Virus record (IMG/VR): IMGVR_UViG_3300021959_010405
Location: 53,430 to 117,429 of that record
From: a virus
Strand: one strand, 5' to 3'
Length of the DNA: 64,000 bases
The position numbers and the translations under genes are program-made. Below the pieces are notes generated by a model, which saw nothing but the letters and a program-made list of their open reading frames with translations, was not told the origin of the DNA and did not search any database. This document shows positions 14,021-59,027 of the stretch, in pieces. Position 1 is the first letter of the stretch; each line of letters starts with the position of its first letter.

Positions 14021-15298
14021 ATGAGAACATTTAAACAATACTATAAAAATAAAAAACAAAATCTCTATTTAGAATTTTTTGATGCTATAGATGGCGCAGT
14101 TAAGCACATTGATCATTTAGAGGAAAACATTCTTAACAAAGGTAAGCAAGGAGTACATGACGCACTAAATCAAATTGAAGCTTCGATAAAGTACTTCACA
14201 GAAGAATCTGATTATAAAATTAGTGTTAAGTTTGATGGAGCTCCAGCTATAGTTGCAGGGACTGATCCTAGTGGAAGATTCTTTGTAGCCAGTAAGTCCG
14301 CTTTTGCAAAAAATCCAAAAATAAACTATACTGTTGAAGATATTGAGCGAAATCACGGCCACGCTCCAGGTTTGGTAGATAAATTAGTAAAAGCTTTAAA
14401 ATATTTACCTTCTTTAAATATAAAAGGCATCTATCAAATGGATTTTATGTTTGATGATCAACTCAAGCAAATAGAAACCCCACAAACAATAGATGGTGTG
14501 CCCAATGAGAATACATTTATAACATTTACACCGAATACCATTAAGTATGCTGTATCTCCGGATAGTCCGTATGGAGATCAAATACAGAAAGCACAAATAG
14601 GGGTTGCAGTGCATATTGAATATGAGGTGCGTGATGGGATTCTTAAGGTTAAAAAATATACATCAAGTCCGGATGAGTTTTCATCTTCTAATACGGTATT
14701 TTTATTCAACGTTTTAGCGGGTAAGTCTAAACAAGGTGTGAGTAGGTTCACAAAAAGACTTTTAACCGATGTTAAACGTAAGAAAGAGCGTGTATTAAAA
14801 TTATCTAACAATATAAAGTTTAAAGAGCTCGAACCTTATAACGCGTTAATAAAGACGTATATTAATAGTGAAATTAGAAGCGGTAGATTCTTAGATAATA
14901 TTGCAATGTCTACTGATGAATTAGTAAGATATAATGCTGATAGATATCAAAAGCAAATTGATAAGCTTAAATCCGATGCTGGTAAGCAAAGAAAGAAAGA
15001 ACAAATGGATGCAGATATGGGTAAGCTTATGGAGCTTAGATCTTCCGTTAAGGGGGTATTGGAAATTACTAAAATTATAGCAATGTTAAAAAATAATCTC
15101 GTTAAAATATTTAATGAGATAACTCGCAACGATTTGCTTGGAAATTATCTCGATGAGGGAGGCGGTCAATGGCAAACAACCGCGCCAGAAGGTTTCGCTT
15201 TATCGAAGGTAGATGATGAAGGGGCTCAAATAACCAAAATGGTAGATCGTCAAGAATTTAGTGCAGCAAACTTTGGAACTGGAAAACCTGGATCATGA
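14021..15298 (+). CDS. DUF6267-like protein with ligase-type nucleotidyltransferase motifs
   Basis: HIDHLEE, KFDGAPA (KxDG motif I), FFVASKS, EGF, KMVDRQEFS; usually paired with a cytidylyltransferase in T4-like phages. Confidence 0.7.
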   Translation: MRTFKQYYKNKKQNLYLEFFDAIDGAVKHIDHLEENILNKGKQGVHDALNQIEASIKYFTEESDYKISVKFDGAPAIVAGTDPSGRFFVASKSAFAKNPKINYTVEDIERNHGHAPGLVDKLVKALKYLPSLNIKGIYQMDFMFDDQLKQIETPQTIDGVPNENTFITFTPNTIKYAVSPDSPYGDQIQKAQIGVAVHIEYEVRDGILKVKKYTSSPDEFSSSNTVFLFNVLAGKSKQGVSRFTKRLLTDVKRKKERVLKLSNNIKFKELEPYNALIKTYINSEIRSGRFLDNIAMSTDELVRYNADRYQKQIDKLKSDAGKQRKKEQMDADMGKLMELRSSVKGVLEITKIIAMLKNNLVKIFNEITRNDLLGNYLDEGGGQWQTTAPEGFALSKVDDEGAQITKMVDRQEFSAANFGTGKPGS

Positions 15299-15894
15299 AT
15301 TTTACCCAATATGTAGAAAGTCAAAATAGTAACTCAGTAGCCTTACTACCGGGAGGGTTTAAGCCACCAACAAAGGGTCACTTTAGAGCATTTAAATATA
15401 TTCTCGAAGATGCTGATAAAGGTATTGTATTTATCGGTTCAGGTGACCGTGAGTTAGTAGAGAATGAGCCAGAAAAAGGAGTCATTACTCAAGCTCAATC
15501 AAAAGCTATCTGGGAGATCTATGCCAAGCATCTTGGTAAGCCAATTGAGGTTCGTACATCAGCAAATACCCCTGTTAGGGATGTATATAAATATGCAGAT
15601 GCAAATCCAGATTTACCAATTATTGTAGGTGCTGGTGGGCCGCGTGAAATCAAACCTGGGGTATTTGATAAGGGTGATATGAAGCGTTATGAATATTTCG
15701 TAAAGAACCCTGAGAAGTATCCTCTTGTTAGGGTTGTTCAGATTCCAAGTCAAGAAAAAGGTATGCGAGCTACTGTAATGAGAGAGCTACTTGCAAAGGA
15801 TTTAGATGCTGGTATTGAAGCATTTGCACCTCTTGGTGATGATGGTATAACAGAATCTGATAAAGATGCAATTAAGAGCATTTTAGGTGGCTAA
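15295..15894 (+). CDS. Cytidylyltransferase-like (HIGH family) nucleotidyltransferase
   Basis: GGFKPPTKGH (HxGH-type motif), IVGAG, C-terminal MRATVMR (KMSKS-like). Confidence 0.8.
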   Translation: MNFTQYVESQNSNSVALLPGGFKPPTKGHFRAFKYILEDADKGIVFIGSGDRELVENEPEKGVITQAQSKAIWEIYAKHLGKPIEVRTSANTPVRDVYKYADANPDLPIIVGAGGPREIKPGVFDKGDMKRYEYFVKNPEKYPLVRVVQIPSQEKGMRATVMRELLAKDLDAGIEAFAPLGDDGITESDKDAIKSILGG

Positions 15895-52188: not shown

Positions 52189-52806
52189 ATGCTATCCAAA
52201 TTTATAAATAAAAAAGTGCGCCAAATTACCAACAATATAGCTGATAGAGTATATATTGAAACTTTTTTACAAGATGCTTCATTAACTAATAAATTAAAAT
52301 TGTATGCTATAAATAAATGTAGAACTAAAAATCCTGCAAAAATATCTACTGTGAAAAAGAGAAAAAAACCATCCAGACCATATAAACAGGGAGTATTTAA
52401 ACCAAAAAATCCTCTCAAATTTGATGGGTCTGCAGCAGTCTATCGATCATCTTACGAGCTAAAATTTTTTAGATGGTGTGATGAAAACGTAAATGTTCTT
52501 AAATGGGGTAGCGAGAATGTTGTAATACCATACGTTAATCCTAATACCAATAAATTATCTAAATATTTTGTAGATAGCTTTATTGTTTTAAAGGAAGGCT
52601 CAAAACATAATAAATATTTAATCGAAATAAAGCCCTTTAAACAAACTAGACCACCGAATCCGAGTAGGTATAGAAATAAGGATAATTTATTATACGAACA
52701 AACTATGTGGAATCAAAATCAAGCTAAGTGGGATGCAGCAAACAAATGGGCTAAAAAACATAGTGCCGAATTTATTATATTAACAGAAAAGGAATTAAAC
52801 ATATAA
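52189..52806 (+). CDS. gp4: Head completion nuclease (gp4); true start may be the GTG at 52351
   Basis: YKQGVFKPKNP.K, YRSSYE..F, WGSE...IPY, YFVD, IEIKP, NQAKW, ILTE. Confidence 0.88.
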   Translation: MLSKFINKKVRQITNNIADRVYIETFLQDASLTNKLKLYAINKCRTKNPAKISTVKKRKKPSRPYKQGVFKPKNPLKFDGSAAVYRSSYELKFFRWCDENVNVLKWGSENVVIPYVNPNTNKLSKYFVDSFIVLKEGSKHNKYLIEIKPFKQTRPPNPSRYRNKDNLLYEQTMWNQNQAKWDAANKWAKKHSAEFIILTEKELNI

Positions 52807-52855: not shown

Positions 52856-53533
52856 ATGGGATTCCGATTAATTACTGATGAGGCAGCGGCTACATTAGAC
52901 GAGTTCGAATATATATTCGAAGAAAAAGACCGTAATGAACCTAGATCGCTCTATATTCAAGGGCCATATATGCTAGCAGAAGCTGTTAATCGTAATAAGA
53001 GGAAATATCCTATCCACGAGATGAGAAAAGAAGTGGATAGATATACAAATGATATGATCAATAAGCAGAGAGCTATGGGAGAGCTTAATCACCCCACCTC
53101 TGCGGACGTTGATTTAGAACGCGCATGCCATTTAGTAGAATATTTAAAAGAGGAGAAAGAGGGGGACAGATATGTATTTACTGGTAGATCAAAAGTACTT
53201 ACTACCCCTTGTGGTAAAATTGTTCACTCATTAGTTAATGATGGAGTGTCTGTTGGAATGTCTTCAAGAGCTTTAGGTCAATTATCAGAGAAGAATTCCT
53301 TTAACGAAGTTAGCAACATGAGATTGGTCGCTATTGATTGTGTCGCAGATCCGTCATTTAGTGAAGCATTCGTAAATGGTATATTAGAATCTAAAGAATG
53401 GGTATTGAAGGATGATGGTCATTTCGAAGAAAACTACGAAGAGTTTGAAAAATCTTTACATAATCTACCAAAAGGCTGTAAAAAAGATTTTATTACAGAA
53501 CAAATTATCAATTTTATTAAAAATATTAGGTAG
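52856..53533 (+). CDS. gp21: Prohead protease (gp21)
   Basis: NRNKRKYP, GELNHP, GMSSRALG, DCVADPS. Confidence 0.93.
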   Translation: MGFRLITDEAAATLDEFEYIFEEKDRNEPRSLYIQGPYMLAEAVNRNKRKYPIHEMRKEVDRYTNDMINKQRAMGELNHPTSADVDLERACHLVEYLKEEKEGDRYVFTGRSKVLTTPCGKIVHSLVNDGVSVGMSSRALGQLSEKNSFNEVSNMRLVAIDCVADPSFSEAFVNGILESKEWVLKDDGHFEENYEEFEKSLHNLPKGCKKDFITEQIINFIKNIR

Positions 53534-54672: not shown

Positions 54673-56169
54673 ATGAAAAATCCGAATATTGATGGAAATA
54701 CAGCTAAAAGACTTCTTGAGAAGTGGGCACCAGTTTTGGACTACTCCTCTAAGAACATAGCTCCAATTGAAGATGAGCGTACCCGCGTTAATACCGCGAT
54801 TATGCTTGAGAACCAAGAGGACTGGTGTCAGGACCCTGAAGGTGGTCTCCTTATGGAGAGCTCCTACGGCGGAAATGGTGGTTCTTTTGGATCTGGATCC
54901 TCTGTGGGTGGAGTTTACTCCCCTCCTGGAACTGTTACTAGCAACGACGGATATGCGTCCGGAGATGCTCGTCTTCCAAAAATCCTTATTCCGATGATTC
55001 GTCGTACTTTCCCTGAATTGATAAGTAATGAGATCGTTGGAGTTCAGCCAATGAGTGGTCCTGTTGGACTTGCTTTCGCTTTGCGTTACAAGTACAACAC
55101 GGAAGGTCTCGGTACTGGCGGTGTTGACGGTGGGGCTACTGGTCCTGGCGGAACACACAACACGTACCTTGGATCGCCACCTAATGATGAATTAGGTTAC
55201 CAGCATCTCGATACCCGCTTTACTGGTACTTCTTCCAGTCAGCTCTCTGGCGATGGAGATTATTTTAACTTCGCAGCTCAGGATCAAGGTGTAGCCGAGA
55301 TCCTTAAGAACTGGGAAATTAATAACAACATCCCTCAGGTTGACATTTCTTTTGAGAAGACCGCTGTTGAGGCAGGTACGAGACGTTTAGGTGCTCGTTG
55401 GTCTGTTGAGCTTGAGCAAGACCTTAAGAACATGAATGGTATCGACGTTGATGCTGAAATCACGAACGCTATGGCGTACGAGATCCAGGCAGAAATCGAT
55501 CGTGAAATGATTGTTCGTATGATCCAGACAGCACTCAACGCCGGATACGGCGCTGGTTTCTCTGTTTGGTCACCTGCATCTGCAGATGGTCGCTGGCTCG
55601 TTGAGCGCAACAGAGACTTCTACCAGAGACTTATTATCGAAGCTAACCGTATTGCTGTCCGCAACCGTCGTGGCGCTGCAAACTTTATTGTTTGTACTCC
55701 TCGTGTTGCAGCTATTCTCGAAATGCTTCCGGAATTCCAGTGGGTTCCGGTTCAAGGCAACGTGAATACACAGCCTGTCGGTATCGCTAAGGTTGGTAAT
55801 CTCGGTGGTCGTTTCAACGTTTATCGTGACACTCGTACGGAAGTCCAAAACTCTGGCGTATATGGATCGCAAGGTTACTCTGATGGTAGTCTTGGTGGTT
55901 CAACTTATACTCGCACTGATGGTGTTGAGTACGCCCTCCTTGGTTACAAGGGGCCTGAGTTCTACGACACTGGTATTATATACTGCCCGTACATTCCTGT
56001 CATGGTACAGCGTACGATTGGTCCTCAGGACTTCGCTCCTCGTGTTGGTCTTCTCACCCGTTACGGCGTGGTTGACAACATCTTTGGTGCGAATCTCTAT
56101 TACCACATCATTATTGTTCAGGGACTGGGTGCGGCGTTTACGCCGGCTTCACAGTCTGTTTACTTCTAA
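54673..56169 (+). CDS. gp23: Major capsid protein (gp23)
   Basis: LLEKWAPVL, MIRRTFPEL, GVQPMSGPVGLAFALR, ELEQDLK, EIDREM, IYCPYIP, LLTRYG. Confidence 0.97.
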   Translation: MKNPNIDGNTAKRLLEKWAPVLDYSSKNIAPIEDERTRVNTAIMLENQEDWCQDPEGGLLMESSYGGNGGSFGSGSSVGGVYSPPGTVTSNDGYASGDARLPKILIPMIRRTFPELISNEIVGVQPMSGPVGLAFALRYKYNTEGLGTGGVDGGATGPGGTHNTYLGSPPNDELGYQHLDTRFTGTSSSQLSGDGDYFNFAAQDQGVAEILKNWEINNNIPQVDISFEKTAVEAGTRRLGARWSVELEQDLKNMNGIDVDAEITNAMAYEIQAEIDREMIVRMIQTALNAGYGAGFSVWSPASADGRWLVERNRDFYQRLIIEANRIAVRNRRGAANFIVCTPRVAAILEMLPEFQWVPVQGNVNTQPVGIAKVGNLGGRFNVYRDTRTEVQNSGVYGSQGYSDGSLGGSTYTRTDGVEYALLGYKGPEFYDTGIIYCPYIPVMVQRTIGPQDFAPRVGLLTRYGVVDNIFGANLYYHIIIVQGLGAAFTPASQSVYF

Positions 56170-56196
56170 TTTAGAGGTACAGAATCCCTTTAAGAG

Positions 56197-56218
56197 CCTC
56201 GGAGAGAAATCTCCGAGG
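56197..56218. terminator. Bidirectional intrinsic terminator between gp23 and the LRR genes
   Basis: CCTCGGAGA-GAAA-TCTCCGAGG followed by TTTCTTT. Confidence 0.85.
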
Positions 56219-56223
56219 TTTCT

Positions 56224-56895
56224 TTATGTAAATATTCTGCCTCTTACTCCCGGTAACATTCCTTTAAGTTCTTCCGCAGTATATTTTTTACTTATCGGGG
56301 TATTAGTTAGATCTAAATCACCACCTACTTGTAGATTATCTGGCAGTGATGTTATTTGCGTATTACGTAAATCTAAACTACTGCCTACTTCTAGATTATC
56401 TGGTAGTGAGGCTATTGGTGCGCTAGATAAATATAAACCACCACCTACTTTAAGATTATCTGGGAGTGATGTTATTTGCGTATTACGTAAATCTAAAAAA
56501 CCGCTTACTTTAAGATTATTTGATAGTGATGTTATTGGTGTGTTAGATAGATCTAAATAACCGTTTACTTCTAGATTATCTGGTAATGATGTTATTTGTG
56601 TATTAGGTAAATCTAAACTACCACCTACTTGTAGATTATCTGGTAGTGAGGCTATTGGTGTGCTAGATAAATATAAACCGCGACCCACTTTAAGATTATT
56701 TGGTAGTGATGTTATTGGTGTATTAGTTAGAATTAAATCACCTCGCGACCCATTATCGATATAATCTTGTATCTTTTTATACGCCAATCTCTCTAAATGA
56801 GCTTGCTTATCCTCTCTAGAGTACTTTGGTTTATGATTAGTCAAATCGATAGATTCTCTAAGGATTTGTTTGTATGCTTCAAATATAGGGTCCAT
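56224..56895 (-). CDS. Variable leucine-rich-repeat protein C (7 full 20-aa repeats plus terminal repeat)
   Basis: Repeats GxLxLxxTxITSLPDNLxV; conserved N-cap MDPIFEAYKQIL and C-cap TPISKKYTAEELK. Confidence 0.9.
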   Translation of the reverse strand: MDPIFEAYKQILRESIDLTNHKPKYSREDKQAHLERLAYKKIQDYIDNGSRGDLILTNTPITSLPNNLKVGRGLYLSSTPIASLPDNLQVGGSLDLPNTQITSLPDNLEVNGYLDLSNTPITSLSNNLKVSGFLDLRNTQITSLPDNLKVGGGLYLSSAPIASLPDNLEVGSSLDLRNTQITSLPDNLQVGGDLDLTNTPISKKYTAEELKGMLPGVRGRIFT

Positions 56896-56912
56896 TTAAT
56901 TTTTAGGATTAT

Positions 56913-57527
56913 TTATGTATATATTTTGCCTTCTACTCCTGGGAGCATTCTTTTAAGTTCTTCCGCAGTATATTTTTTACTTATTGGGGTATTACGTAAA
57001 TATAAATGACCACCTACTTCTAGATTATCTGGTAGGGATGTTATTTGGGTATTACGTAAATATAAACCACCACCTACTTCTAGATTATCTGGTAGGGATG
57101 TTATTTTAGTACCACCTAAATTTAAATCACCACCTACTTCTAGATTATCTGGCAGTGATGCTATTTGTGTATTATCTAAATATAAATCACCACCTACTTC
57201 TAGATTATCTGGCAGTGATGTTATTTGCGTATTACCTAAATATAAACCACCACCTACTTTAAGATTATCTGGTAGGGATGTTATTTGTGTATTACGTAAA
57301 TTTAAACCACCACCTACTTCTAGATTATCTGGTAGGGATGTTATTTGCGTATAAGATAAATCTAAATTGCCTTGAGATCCACTATCGATATAATCTTGTA
57401 CCTTTTTATACGCCAATCTCGCTAAATGAGCTTGTTTATCCTCTTTAGTGTATTTTGGTTTATGATTAGTCAAATCGATAGTCTGTTCACTTAGGATTTG
57501 TTTGTATGCTTCGAATATAGGGTCCAT
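56913..57527 (-). CDS. Variable leucine-rich-repeat protein B (6 full repeats plus terminal repeat)
   Basis: Same caps and 60-bp repeat modules. Confidence 0.9.
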   Translation of the reverse strand: MDPIFEAYKQILSEQTIDLTNHKPKYTKEDKQAHLARLAYKKVQDYIDSGSQGNLDLSYTQITSLPDNLEVGGGLNLRNTQITSLPDNLKVGGGLYLGNTQITSLPDNLEVGGDLYLDNTQIASLPDNLEVGGDLNLGGTKITSLPDNLEVGGGLYLRNTQITSLPDNLEVGGHLYLRNTPISKKYTAEELKRMLPGVEGKIYT

Positions 57528-57555
57528 ATGTTTTATTAAATCATATATTGATTAT

Positions 57556-58167
57556 TTATGTATATATTTTGCCTTCTACCCCTGGGAGCATTCTTTTAAG
57601 TTTTTTCGCAGTATATTTTTTACTTATTGGTGTTTTCTCTAAATTTAAATATTCACCTACTTTTAAATTATCTGGTAGGGATGTTATTTGCGTATTATGT
57701 AAATCTAAAATACCGTCTACTTTAAGATTATCTGGCAGTGATGTTATTTGCGTATTACCTAAATATAAACCACCACCTACTTCTAGATTATCTGGTAGGG
57801 ATGTTATTTGCGTATAAGATAAATATAAATCACCACCTACTTCTAGATTATCTGGTAGGGATGTTATTTTAGTACCACCTAAATTTAAATATCCACCTAC
57901 TTTAAGATTATCTGGTAGGGATGTTATTTGCGTATTATGTAAATCTAAAATACCGTCTACTTTAAGATTATCTGGTAGGGATGTTATTTGTGTATTAGCT
58001 AGTTCTAAATTGCCTTGAGATCCACTATCGATATAATCTTGTACCTTTTTATACGCTAATTTATTTAAATGAGCTTGCTTATCCTCTTTAGTGTATTTTG
58101 GTTTATGGTTAGTTAAATCGATAGATTCTCTAAGAATTTGTTTGTATACTTCAAATATAGGGTCCAT
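57556..58167 (-). CDS. Variable leucine-rich-repeat protein A (6 full repeats plus terminal repeat)
   Basis: Same caps and 60-bp repeat modules. Confidence 0.9.
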   Translation of the reverse strand: MDPIFEVYKQILRESIDLTNHKPKYTKEDKQAHLNKLAYKKVQDYIDSGSQGNLELANTQITSLPDNLKVDGILDLHNTQITSLPDNLKVGGYLNLGGTKITSLPDNLEVGGDLYLSYTQITSLPDNLEVGGGLYLGNTQITSLPDNLKVDGILDLHNTQITSLPDNLKVGEYLNLEKTPISKKYTAKKLKRMLPGVEGKIYT

Positions 58168-58184: not shown

Positions 58185-59027
58185 TTAATTAATACCAACT
58201 ATTTTCATCCACGTATCTAACATATCACGACCCATCTGACTATCAGTACCGTCATATGCGTCATATGTATAAAAATTACCTTCACTGTCTTTTCTTGTTA
58301 TTATCTTTTCCCCGACTTTGTCAATTCTGGATGAATCGTTAATCGGAATTCTTGCCAGCGCAACCACATAATGCTTCTCATCAAACCCACTACGCTTAAG
58401 CTGATTTTTTAAACTATCGCTCTTTATCAATGTATAATAGAAATCAACATTATTATTGTAGTAATAATCATCCCAATGTGTTGAAGTACTATACGTAGTA
58501 CACCATGCAGAATCTTTTTTACCACCTTTGCATTCTCTAAAAGCAAAACCTCCCTGTTCTACAGGGGTAAGGCCTAGCTTTCTAGAAGCTTCATGTGTAT
58601 AAGGTATAACTATACGTATATCGTCATTGTCAACAATAACGTCAAAATCACCAGACAATTCGCTTTTCGATGCAGTCGTTTCAGTTTTATTAAGCTCATT
58701 AACAATATTATACAGATCCTTAAAACTTTTGTAAGATTGAATATTTGACTTTTGATCTTTTATCAATCCTTTACGAACAAAAGCGTCAAATTCTTCTATT
58801 GTATTGCGGAGATTATCGATATCTTGTTCTTCTCCTCTGACATATACTCGAGCTAACCACCCAGTATATTTTTTTTGTTCGGTTGGGTCAATACCTACAA
58901 TAGTATCAAACTCTTGTTTATCTAACTTTCCTTGCTGTAGAAGTTGTTTAGCTTCTCTCCTACTCTCAGTAATAACGTTATAAAATAAATTTAGTATATT
59001 AACAGAATCTTCATTAAGAACTTCCAT
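58185..59027 (-). CDS. Late hypothetical protein with DPT..KKY..W and SAWCT motifs
   Basis: TAAATA-N5-ATG; DPTEQKKYTGWL and SAWCTT..WDDYY motifs; co-transcribed with the LRR genes. Confidence 0.7.
   Translation of the reverse strand: MEVLNEDSVNILNLFYNVITESRREAKQLLQQGKLDKQEFDTIVGIDPTEQKKYTGWLARVYVRGEEQDIDNLRNTIEEFDAFVRKGLIKDQKSNIQSYKSFKDLYNIVNELNKTETTASKSELSGDFDVIVDNDDIRIVIPYTHEASRKLGLTPVEQGGFAFRECKGGKKDSAWCTTYSTSTHWDDYYYNNNVDFYYTLIKSDSLKNQLKRSGFDEKHYVVALARIPINDSSRIDKVGEKIITRKDSEGNFYTYDAYDGTDSQMGRDMLDTWMKIVGIN

Follow-up and report, generated by a model that had tools for sequence, protein, structure and literature searches.

Shuffled leucine-rich repeat proteins and a constant partner form a putative two-part module in an uncultured T4-like phage

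An uncultured T4-like phage, sampled as a 64,000-nucleotide stretch (the window) of a 117-kb IMG/VR record that covers about 55% of its genome, carries three tandem genes for leucine-rich repeat (LRR) proteins whose diversity is germline, consisting of module shuffling, gain and loss of modules and whole genes, and an excess of amino-acid change at the concave face. Such binder sets are inherited, shuffled by recombination and common in aquatic phages. In the explanation that we favour, and to which we give about an even chance, the variable LRR proteins would form a two-part module with a constant 280-aa protein (hereafter the hub), their diversity being inherited and their target lying inside the host cell. 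The partner gene (58185-59027) stands directly upstream of the LRR genes, just outside the region covered by a preliminary description of the locus. The three LRR genes are intact minus-strand ORFs (A, B and C; 203, 204 and 223 aa), and the features of the locus are as follows.

58185..59027, minus strand: hub gene, a 280-aa ORF directly upstream of the LRR genes
57556..58167, minus strand: LRR gene A, 203 aa; leader, docking segment (predicted), N-cap helix, six full modules plus a cap module, C-cap
58066..58167, minus strand: gene A leader and docking segment, residues 1-34; leader, residues 1-14, MDPIFEVYKQILRE; residues 13-34 predicted to dock
57655..58014, minus strand: gene A array of six 60-bp modules; A2 is near-identical to A6
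56913..57527, minus strand: LRR gene B, 204 aa; six full modules plus a cap module
57423..57527, minus strand: gene B leader and predicted docking segment, residues 1-35, near-identical to gene A
57012..57371, minus strand: gene B array of six 60-bp modules; B5 is close to A3, B1 to A4 and B3 to A5
56224..56895, minus strand: LRR gene C, 223 aa; seven full modules plus a cap module
56794..56895, minus strand: gene C leader and predicted docking segment, residues 1-34, equivalent to gene A
56323..56742, minus strand: gene C array of seven 60-bp modules; C2 is close to C6 and C5 to C7
56194..56221, no strand assigned: hairpin with a 12-bp stem, lying where the major capsid gene (stop at 56169) and gene C (stop at 56224) converge

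The hairpin is likely the end of both transcription units, that of the capsid gene and that of gene C. A late promoter was considered at TAAATA, a late-promoter-like motif that precedes the hub start by 5 nt and gene C by 14 nt, and was dropped: motifs of this type are frequent in the AT-rich genome (TATAAATA, 23 found versus 18 expected) and TAAATA is not consistently kept upstream of hub genes in relatives. A scan for sigma-70 promoters returned the background level only. No close cultured relative emerged from a megablast search of the locus against GenBank phages; tblastn of the hub gave no match, and a search with the LRR protein matched only repeat regions of Edwardsiella phage Edno5.

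The preliminary description had read the locus as three tandem paralogs with constant caps and 60-bp/20-aa modules, a reading borne out by the ORFs, by Tandem Repeats Finder (60-bp periods with 6.2-7.2 copies per gene, and higher orders of 120 and 180 bp) and by a module parse that resolved genes A, B and C into 6, 6 and 7 full GxLxLxxTxITSLPDNLxVG modules plus a cap module, with N- and C-caps common to all. Variation concentrates, as had been proposed, on the xLxLxx strand, with entropy peaks of 1.4-2.7 bits at module positions 2, 4, 6 and 7; the ITSLPDNL half is nearly constant. L3, L5, I10, S12, L13, N16, L17 and V19 are invariant in 19/19 modules, and T8 is kept in 18/19. Genes A and B exceed the Pfam cut-offs for LRR_4 (31.2 bits each; cut-off 27) and LRR_1 (24.3 and 22.0 bits; cut-off 20.6), and gene C falls below both (22.4 and 17.9 bits). 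The structure prediction called for in the preliminary description yielded an LRR solenoid: the AlphaFold model of gene A (pLDDT 92.7, pTM 0.82) has regular strands every 20 residues, and all of its top Foldseek matches are LRR proteins (Leptospira, IpaH/SspH and YopM, with VLR LRRs matching more weakly). Genes A, B and C thus encode LRR solenoids of the short ‘bacterial’ class. Their caps are helical and cysteine-free, and neither a signal peptide nor a membrane segment is visible in the sequences. The best matches among solved structures (TM about 0.6, identity 26-27%) are a Vibrio polar flagellar motor chain (8z5u_0, E 7e-7) and Leptospira LIC12234 (E 4e-5), short-repeat bacterial LRR solenoids of similar size that differ in caps, context and partners; the match shows no shared function.

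The module recurrences named earlier are all real. Specifically, exact tracts are shared by A3 and B5 (LNLGGTKITS; 58/60 match, within a 60-bp tract at 57890-57831 and 57127-57068), by A5 and B3 (GLYLGN; 58 bp) and by A2 and A6 (GILDLHN; 69 bp). Because the three longest tracts shared by A and B differ in register offset (about -2, +3 and +2 modules), the two arrays are not collinear. Eight module pairs lie no more than 4 nt apart, versus 0.92 expected when codon columns are shuffled (0/2000 shuffles reach 8), the median difference between modules being 11/60 positions. These results support the earlier suggestion that modules have been moved and copied by recombination or conversion. The drivers proposed with it, UvsX/UvsY/gp46/47, did not stand up: they are generic T4 recombination functions and do not point to a dedicated mechanism. 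Under the favoured explanation, the sources of diversity are unequal crossing-over and gene conversion among the 60-bp modules and the paralogs, together with gain and loss of whole genes.

Selection appears to act on this diversity at the concave face, where it would favour amino-acid change. The per-position dN/dS comparison proposed in the preliminary description gave 2.05 for dN at xLxLxx positions over dS (bootstrap 1.59-2.77) versus 0.09 for the scaffold, the former an estimate from paralogous, non-independent repeats with 4 codons per module. When the entire family is taken together, the signal is saturated (0.73). The N-cap, with a dN/dS of 0.16-0.26, is under purifying selection. Synonymous divergence is about 0.32 among modules, equal to the 0.30-0.39 of the gene caps, and from this equality it follows that turnover is evolutionary rather than per-infection and that module copying is neither recent nor frequent.

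In short-read metagenome assemblies, on which all comparisons with relatives rest and in which 60-bp repeats may collapse or mis-join, module order and number are not kept between related phages, so that a fixed order across relatives, which the preliminary description had named as grounds for dropping its reading, is not what these assemblies show. A variant of gene C in another assembly (P0003) encodes 183 aa and is identical save for the absence of exactly two modules, the ends of the indel falling in a 33-nt tract common to modules C5 and C7. Three further loci (L050, L051 and L055) have hubs that are 99.7-100% identical, yet one LRR gene differs among them by exactly three modules and a second carries a different module set; the downstream gene of L050 is the same as that of L051, and its upstream gene the same as that of L055. 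A whole LRR gene found in L069 is missing from L065, which is 99.8% identical. We consider it very improbable that the arrays, or the differences between relatives, stem from mis-assembled 60-bp repeats. The short-read origin of all data and the position of the P0003 indel within the C5/C7 tract are what such an artefact would have in its favour, whereas intact, in-frame, capped genes of the same LRR family recur on dozens of independent contigs, the same alleles are found in different samples (L050/L051 and L050/L055) and a median of 11 differences per module is enough for assemblers to resolve.

The preliminary description had likened the locus to the variable lymphocyte receptors (VLRs) of agnathans, and for the evolutionary outcome the likeness holds: a capped LRR solenoid, concave-strand diversity and a module mosaic, with hagfish VLR B59 as a weak fold match (E 1e-3). 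For programmed assembly it does not. In VLRs, AID-like deaminases help to fill an incomplete germline gene with flanking cassettes in somatic cells, and the caps are the Cys-rich LRRNT and LRRCT; here the genes are complete in the germline, the caps are Cys-free and helical, and turnover is evolutionary rather than somatic. Frequent rebuilding of the arrays by VLR-like cassette copying or by the mutagenic retrohoming of a diversity-generating retroelement (DGR) is accordingly a reading that we hold to be extremely improbable, its appeal lying in the VLR-like mosaic and concave variability and in the whole-module differences between near-identical phages. Against it, all three genes are complete, each with start and stop codons and both caps; no silent cassette store, truncated acceptor gene, donor cassette, further copy or fragment was found elsewhere in the 117-kb record; and the synonymous divergence of modules is as large as that of the caps. 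The earlier statement that this is not a DGR also stands, as a search of the same, about 55% complete, record with the reverse transcriptase profile PF00078 found nothing at E <= 1 and the differences are not adenine-only: variable codons extend beyond adenine positions, and near-identical modules show G/T, C/T and C/G as well as synonymous changes.

The hub divides into a helical domain at the N-terminus (about residues 6-118) and an alpha/beta domain at the C-terminus (119-280), with the conserved motifs P-x-T-H-E-A-S-R-K-L-G and D-S-A-W-C-T-T-Y (model pLDDT 84). Its family is large (462 close homologues; 2133 clusters at 50% identity), such that the function of the hub, once identified, would annotate thousands of ‘hypothetical’ phage genes at once. 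Searches with the hub of Pfam, PHROGs, PADLOC and NCBIfam gave no usable match, Pfam had no match in 49 hub homologues, a sequence-profile search of the PDB returned nothing below E 0.5, Foldseek of the model against the PDB nothing at E <= 1e-3, and the ESM Atlas lists no common family for the hub clusters. A wide VIA-align search gave a best Z of 5.5, confined to the helical N-domain, and no convincing fold neighbour.

Linkage between hub and LRR genes extends well beyond this phage. When the hub profile alone was used to fetch 80 viral loci, LRR genes on the same strand stood immediately beside the hub in 61 of them, with up to 7 per hub, and some of the loci scored negative hold other LRR types with the same N-terminal segment; hub homologues likewise adjoin LRR genes in 10 loci fetched via the LRR protein. 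Each of the other genes of the window co-occurs in at most 4/80 hub loci. In one locus (L032), hub and LRR form a single ORF (BLASTP E 8e-37), and many representatives carry the hub fused with ankyrin repeats, with the present LRR type or with a Cys-containing LRR type of 22 residues, the repeats having been recognised by eye and by regular expression. Some LRR types have one cysteine per repeat; outside the hub, ten long fusion proteins gave no Pfam match. At the fusion junction, the LRR N-cap segment (ILVPRRS..EER) follows directly after the hub C-terminus. ORFs of similar length upstream of the hub in two loci (L042 and L063) were considered and rejected as hub paralogs.

Prediction of a complex between the hub and the gene A protein gave a score of 0.74, the best of 3 controls reaching 0.00; the 0.74 mark is attained by 58/80 solved complexes and 2/110 mismatched pairs, counts that are only rough (own alignments). 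At least 60% of contacts agree between runs, and partner pLDDT is at least 83. The predicted interface involves hub residues 129-143, 189-197, 224-226, 245-253 and 277-280 and LRR residues 13, 15-21, 23-25, 27, 30-31 and 33-34, with L18 among the lowest-error contacts; across 42 family members, conservation of L18, P23 and E28 reaches at least 90%, and the N-terminal segment as a whole stays strongly conserved from one LRR repeat class to another. Docking on the hub is thus predicted for this constant segment of the LRR proteins, probably as an added strand on its C-terminal alpha/beta domain, in an arrangement that puts the hub C-terminus beside the LRR docking strand and so matches what the fusions require. 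Given the layout of each LRR protein (leader, docking segment, solenoid and C-cap), the phage would make one hub and three alternative hub-LRR heterodimers, differing only in the concave, ligand-facing surface; in other phages, both parts reside within one polypeptide.

Were the LRR paralogs instead free-standing, they would be tandem duplicates acting alone, and the adjacent hub would reflect co-inheritance of a mobile cassette without interaction. Tandem duplication and changes in repeat number are indeed common in repeat proteins, three loci (L009, L022 and L029) hold LRR arrays of other N-cap types with no hub within 5 kb, and the docking is a prediction only. However, the junction segment is the same in natural hub-LRR fusions, 61/80 independently fetched loci keep the neighbourhood, the complex prediction stands clear of its controls and the N-terminal segment is conserved across LRR repeat classes, and we regard independent action as quite improbable.

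In other phages, the cassette occupies unrelated contexts (DNA polymerase and GroEL, an exonuclease, replication genes), and because of this the proximity to the major capsid gene, a real adjacency to which the preliminary description had given prominence, is incidental. Two cassettes (L006 and L053) lie among baseplate and tail genes, as would be expected if the hub anchored alternative LRR heads outside the particle and the paralogs served as adhesins or receptor-binding accessories. Phage receptor-binding proteins are usually built from a constant N-terminal attachment part and a variable binder at the C-terminus, and recognition of the host at the virion surface would explain a constant attachment part with a variable binder equally well. 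That near-identical phages differ at this locus is also often the case for receptor-binding genes. As a precedent, virion proteins of phage Goslar have DUF7941 as a conserved N-terminal module, after which come carbohydrate-binding or LRR domains, and a role in host recognition is proposed for them (bioRxiv 10.64898/2026.04.21.720040). These and branched multi-tailspike systems resemble the present module in combining a constant part with exchangeable heads and several paralogs per genome. A homologue of the hub in Pseudomonas phage PA5oct (EST35_0205; hhalign probability 97.3%, E 2.5e-11) bears a structural-protein annotation and was detected in virions by ESI-MS/MS; the PA5oct virion list holds 93 proteins, 7 of them classed by its authors as virion-unrelated enzymes (PMC7318152). 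By contrast with the Goslar systems, the hub is not DUF7941, its model has no fibre-like, coiled-coil or trimeric beta-helix part, and the cassette keeps no fixed place in a tail module, lying also beside capsid, DNA polymerase/GroEL, exonuclease and replication genes. Ankyrin fusions and cysteine-rich LRRs occur more typically in binders of the cytoplasm, and the conserved (I/L/V)xE leaders on hub and LRR proteins would be unexpected for tail proteins. On balance, we deem a surface role unlikely, albeit deserving of serious attention.

Under the intracellular reading that we prefer, the LRR proteins would recognise a variable host protein within the infected cell, in a phage-host arms race, and the hub would contribute an activity or an anchor that stays constant. 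That a T4-type capsid-targeting leader delivers the proteins from the phage head is a lead only, with about one chance in three of being correct. The LRR leaders start MDPIFE.YKQIL(R/S)E and the hub leader ends ..NVITE, with E21 invariant in 49 homologues; T4 IPII and IPIII start MKTYQEFIAE and IPI has ..STITE, the shared (L/I)xE ending being a three-residue pattern and a likeness at motif level only. A gp21-type prohead protease is encoded at 52856-53533 of the window (Peptidase_S77, E 5e-28), beside gp20 and gp23 homologues. The internal proteins of T4 form a diverse, injected anti-defence set with only the capsid-targeting sequence in common (PMC3012670). The genes at the present locus resemble IPI, IPII, IPIII and the hyperplastic ip loci of T-even phages in being small, highly variable, non-essential-looking and outside structural modules, as well as in their 10-20-residue leaders and the presence of the protease; they differ in that the T4 proteins are unrelated in sequence and fold, are not repeat proteins and have no hub partner. 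An intracellular or packaged reading also leans on one ankyrin-fused hub, on the LRR types with a cysteine per repeat, on the lack of a visible signal peptide or membrane segment and on the PA5oct hub homologue detected in virions, and the cassette floats among unrelated contexts as T4 ip genes do.

LRR proteins are classic evolvable binders in immune systems and bacterial effectors, and their use by bacteriophages is almost undescribed in the searchable literature. What is new here is the hub partnership, in which a widespread phage domain is linked with rapidly changing LRR or ankyrin binders, either covalently or by a docking strand that is predicted. The binder genes differ between otherwise identical phages, making the locus a concrete, testable unit. 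Should the LRRs prove to target defence or surface proteins of the host, then phage-host specificity in aquatic phages would have in this module a major overlooked determinant, and the module would also be a natural scaffold of exchangeable binders. Among bacterial systems, the closest in kind are the IpaH/SspH/SlrP effectors, which share the short LRR class (Foldseek E about 1e-4 to IpaH9.8, IpaH7.8 and SspH1; NCBIfam SlrP LRR region at E 1e-8, far below its cut-off) and in which target choice falls to a variable LRR and all else to a constant partner domain. Unlike in those effectors, the NEL E3 ubiquitin-ligase domain is absent from genes A, B and C and from the hub (Pfam, NCBIfam), the constant part is an unrelated, uncharacterised domain on a separate polypeptide with several LRR partners, and the system is phage-borne rather than delivered by type III secretion.

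A more specific variant, which we judge decidedly unlikely, makes the hub a constant effector, perhaps nuclease-like or otherwise catalytic and remotely akin to PcfJ or BECR-type domains, that would be loaded into the head with its interchangeable LRR adaptors, enter the cell along with the ejected DNA and be aimed by the adaptors at variable host defence proteins. If true, phages would have their own equivalent of adaptor-guided effectors such as F-box or IpaH systems, and the LRR genes would be a reshuffled, inherited ‘anti-immune repertoire’ differing even between strains that are 99.7-99.8% identical. PcfJ (PF14284) had no Pfam match in the 49 hub homologues, nor in the genome at E <= 10, hhalign of hub against PcfJ gave a probability of 0.1% or less, and a paper on polyvalent proteins (PMC5512222) makes no mention of PcfJ or LRR. 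The idea arose from the motif order E-x-x-x-G..C-T-T-Y..Y-Y and from PcfJ-LRR fusions. For hub residues 119-280, PcfJ makes up 25/30 among the ESM-Atlas matches listed to named clusters (scores 0.87-0.90), and PcfJ-LRR fusions with the same LRR type occur (P0030 and L024).

A distant T4-like phage is the source of the window, which takes up the right-hand 64 kb of an IMG/VR virus record that is 117 kb long and has an estimated completeness of about 55%. Homologues of the gp20 portal, a gp21-type prohead protease (Peptidase_S77) and the gp23 major capsid protein are present in T4 order, gp23 shares only about 33% identity with its cyanophage counterpart, and no near relative was found among the GenBank phages searched. 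Just past gp23, on the opposite strand, lies the leucine-rich repeat (LRR) locus, in which three consecutive LRR genes separated by 17-28 nt end at a hairpin with a 12-bp stem, common to the convergent capsid gene. The gene directly upstream of gene A is referred to here as the hub.

56224-56895, minus strand: LRR gene C, intact ORF
56913-57527, minus strand: LRR gene B, intact ORF
57556-58167, minus strand: LRR gene A, intact ORF
58185-59027, minus strand: hub gene, 280 aa
59029-59817, minus strand: nucleotidyltransferase gene (Pfam NTP_transferase, E 6e-46)
52189-52806, plus strand: ORF with a TnsA-like endonuclease N-terminal domain (E 3e-16)
55793-56560, 56797-57009 and 57548-57817, plus strand: antisense ORFs through the LRR arrays, with periodic GVL..KSK..PPT.. 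translations

The long antisense ORFs were rejected as genes, their periodic translations being shadows of the repeats. The nucleotidyltransferase gene shares the strand of the hub, ends 1 nt short of the hub start and may be co-transcribed with the hub and LRR genes; it is not a companion of these genes in other loci. The TnsA-like ORF lies between the prohead protease and head genes and may be an insertion of the homing-endonuclease type.

Tandem Repeats Finder detected 60-bp units in each of A, B and C, which were parsed into 6, 6 and 7 full modules, respectively, and one cap module per gene. Across these 19 modules L3, L5, I10, S12, L13, N16, L17 and V19 are invariant, and the x positions of the xLxLxx strand (2, 4, 6 and 7; the concave positions) each hold 4-8 different residues. 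The ORFs, modules and recurrences reported in the preliminary description are all real: every recurrence is present, as an exact tract of 58-69 bp, and the tracts shared by A and B sit at three different register offsets. Eight module pairs differ by at most 4 nt, against 0.92 expected when codon columns are shuffled among modules, a count reached in none of 2000 shuffles. Pairs sharing concave residues also share more nucleotides at the remaining, scaffold positions (Mann-Whitney p = 0.006), which suggests that whole modules share ancestry and did not converge.

Selection appears to act on the concave face. Nei-Gojobori counts over all module pairs within the window gave a dS of 0.32, a scaffold dN of 0.029 and a concave-position dN of 0.66. 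The resulting concave dN/dS of 2.05 (bootstrap over modules 1.59-2.77), counted from few codons in non-independent paralogous repeats, is in line with the proposed excess of non-synonymous change and supports a face driven or kept apart by selection. Across the whole family this signal saturates, at 0.73. Purifying selection acts on the caps (N-cap dN/dS 0.16-0.26), whose dS of 0.30-0.39 is the same as that between modules, so that the genes and their modules would be comparably old; this comparison of caps and modules in the window gave no sign of continual recent module copying.

Related loci differ in module number and order, as the preliminary description had anticipated. Three loci that are about 81-85% identical (L011, L012 and L014) carry the same gene type with other module numbers and sets, and share single modules, for example DLYLDNTQIAS. 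P0003, a protein from another assembly, differs from gene C by four substitutions in the N-cap and a gap of exactly two modules and is otherwise identical to it. Among three different IMG/VR metagenome records fetched through the hub gene (L050, L051 and L055; hub DNA identity 99.7-100%), L055 matches L050 at 99.6% identity over 4.7 kb except that its downstream LRR gene is short of exactly three modules, and the upstream LRR gene has nine modules of different content in L051 versus six in L050 and L055. A whole LRR gene is present in L069 and absent from L065, two loci that are 99.8% identical. Random mis-assembly of repeats could also produce such differences, but the recurrence of identical alleles in independent assemblies speaks against it.

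Genes A and B match Pfam LRR_4 and LRR_1 above the cut-offs, and the AlphaFold model of gene A, built on 42 relatives, has a pLDDT of 92.7. A leader helix modelled with lower confidence (residues 3-15) and a short hairpin precede the N-cap helix (27-47); the chain then makes seven regular turns and closes with a helical C-cap. Among solved structures the model comes closest to short-repeat bacterial LRR proteins: a Vibrio polar flagellar motor chain, Leptospira LIC12234, YopM and the LRR domains with which IpaH and SspH1 bind substrates; hagfish VLR matches at E 1e-3 only. Among predicted viral structures the top match, with 50% identity, is a protein named 'Leucine-rich repeat' from an uncultured phage. 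Members of the family are frequent in metagenomes (244 close homologues), with lengths including 123, 143, 163 and 183 aa that lead up to the 203 aa of gene A one 20-aa module at a time. The LRR proteins have no visible signal peptide or membrane segment.

What these analyses add to the original finding is a two-part module of hub and LRR proteins. In two loci (L005 and L006) the LRR genes follow a hub homologue amid otherwise quite different genes. The hub matches no Pfam family and has 462 close homologues; a profile search of 1.84 billion representatives returned 2133 clusters. Many are longer proteins in which the hub domain is followed by LRRs of the A/B/C type (as in the L032 fusion, E 8e-37) or by other repeats, either a different 22-residue Cys-containing LRR type or ankyrin repeats; in P0388 ankyrin repeats stand in place of the LRRs. 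To remove the bias of an LRR-based search, 80 viral loci were fetched with the hub profile alone. Same-strand LRR genes lie immediately beside the hub in 61 of them, flanking it on one side or both and numbering as many as seven for a single hub, and any other window gene is linked to it in at most 4. Since the neighbours vary (tail sheath, baseplate, DNA polymerase, GroEL, exonuclease), the hub and LRR genes form a self-contained, mobile cassette. Several loci scored as LRR-negative carry other LRR types with the same leader and an ILVPRRS..EER segment. Examples of this leader and docking segment (ILVPRR..E.R) on different LRR classes are:

L063, 4225-5465
L056, 4223-4882
L076, 3450-4805

At least three repeat classes share the segment (20-aa SLPDNL, 20-aa SLGNLTSVGG and 22-aa Cys-type NxLTSLEGAP), which suggests a wider family whose constant element is the N-terminal docking piece. 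In P0025, P0045 and P0081, A/B/C-type LRRs are joined to another conserved domain at the C-terminal end, which bears the motifs YADGILTHIK and YR.ITGAC..GT..F, has no Pfam match and seems to serve this LRR class as a further constant partner. PcfJ-like domains are also fused to A/B/C-type LRRs (P0030 and L024).

Structure prediction suggests how the two parts may fit together. In the fusions, the hub C terminus continues straight into the N-terminal segment of the free LRR proteins, after their leader of roughly 12 residues. The predicted complex of hub and gene A scored 0.74, against 0.00 for the best of three controls. Solved complexes attained the 0.74 level in 58 of 80 cases and mismatched pairs in 2 of 110 (rough counts, as custom alignments were used). 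Three runs agreed on at least 60% of contacts, with a partner pLDDT of at least 83. In the predicted interface, the hub C-terminal sheet and last four hub residues face LRR residues 13-34, centred on L18; L18, like P23 and E28, belongs to a small number of N-terminal residues kept in at least 90% of the LRR family. This predicted docking has the geometry that the fused forms require and would account for a conserved N-cap alongside a variable solenoid face. The constant hub and the LRR proteins would thus make up a two-part module, docked through the LRR N-terminal segment and varying on the solenoid face.

As modelled (pLDDT 84), the hub combines a helical N-domain with an alpha/beta C-domain and has as invariant polar residues H, E, S and R; C, D, S, W, C, T and T; and Y. 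Neither Foldseek nor VIA-align returned a convincing structural neighbour. Its ESM-Atlas neighbours include PcfJ-like domains, which hints at a resemblance that HMM and profile-profile comparisons did not confirm. The one homologue found in a cultured phage is EST35_0205 of PA5oct (hhalign probability 97.3%), whose annotation as a structural protein derives from virion mass spectrometry:

L038, PA5oct 126.5-135 kb: hub homologue adjoining the large terminase gene and a gp32-like gene

The same mass-spectrometric 'structural protein' label is attached to the gp32-like gene, so the label is not specific; the virion list holds 93 proteins, 7 of them classed by its authors as virion-unrelated enzymes (PMC7318152).

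The leaders bear on the site of action. In T4, a 10-residue N-terminal capsid-targeting sequence is cleaved by gp21 (PMC10229621), T4-type prohead proteases cut after glutamate (PMC5694885), and T-even internal proteins are a diverse injected anti-defence set with only this tag in common (PMC3012670). T4 IPII and IPIII start MKTYQEFIAE, and IPI has ..STITE; genes A, B and C start MDPIFE.YKQIL(R/S)E, other LRR subfamilies MIKLISFLKEE or MIKFKDILE, and the PA5oct hub homologue MKLFEVFTLYE, and the variable stretch of about 20 residues at the hub N terminus ends in an invariant (I/V/L)xE. Judged from this three-residue motif, packaging of the hub-LRR proteins in the head through a T4-type leader is conceivable and somewhat improbable. 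The main alternative is a surface adhesin, with an attachment piece bearing LRR heads, a design proposed for the Goslar DUF7941 proteins (bioRxiv 10.64898/2026.04.21.720040). Leaders of the same style as in the LRR genes (MRTFKQY.. and MNFTQYVE) start a further pair of window genes:

14021-15894, plus strand: DUF6267 protein (DUF6267 E 1e-77) and overlapping next gene

The preliminary description had read the arrays as a VLR-like shuffled repertoire. Recombination and selection hold up in that reading; the antibody-like mechanism does not, and the locus is neither a VLR system nor, by a reverse transcriptase search of the 117-kb record that gave no match, a DGR. The hub-LRR module would work like adaptor-guided effectors, namely IpaH/SspH, which join LRRs to a constant domain, and F-box-LRR proteins, would evolve like arms-race repeat families, and resembles T-even ip loci in its genomic behaviour. 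Few window genes have a Shine-Dalgarno-like sequence at their start, and many, known structural genes included, have TAAATA 5-15 nt 5' of the ATG, a combination that may reflect a Bacteroidota-type host and very short leaders.
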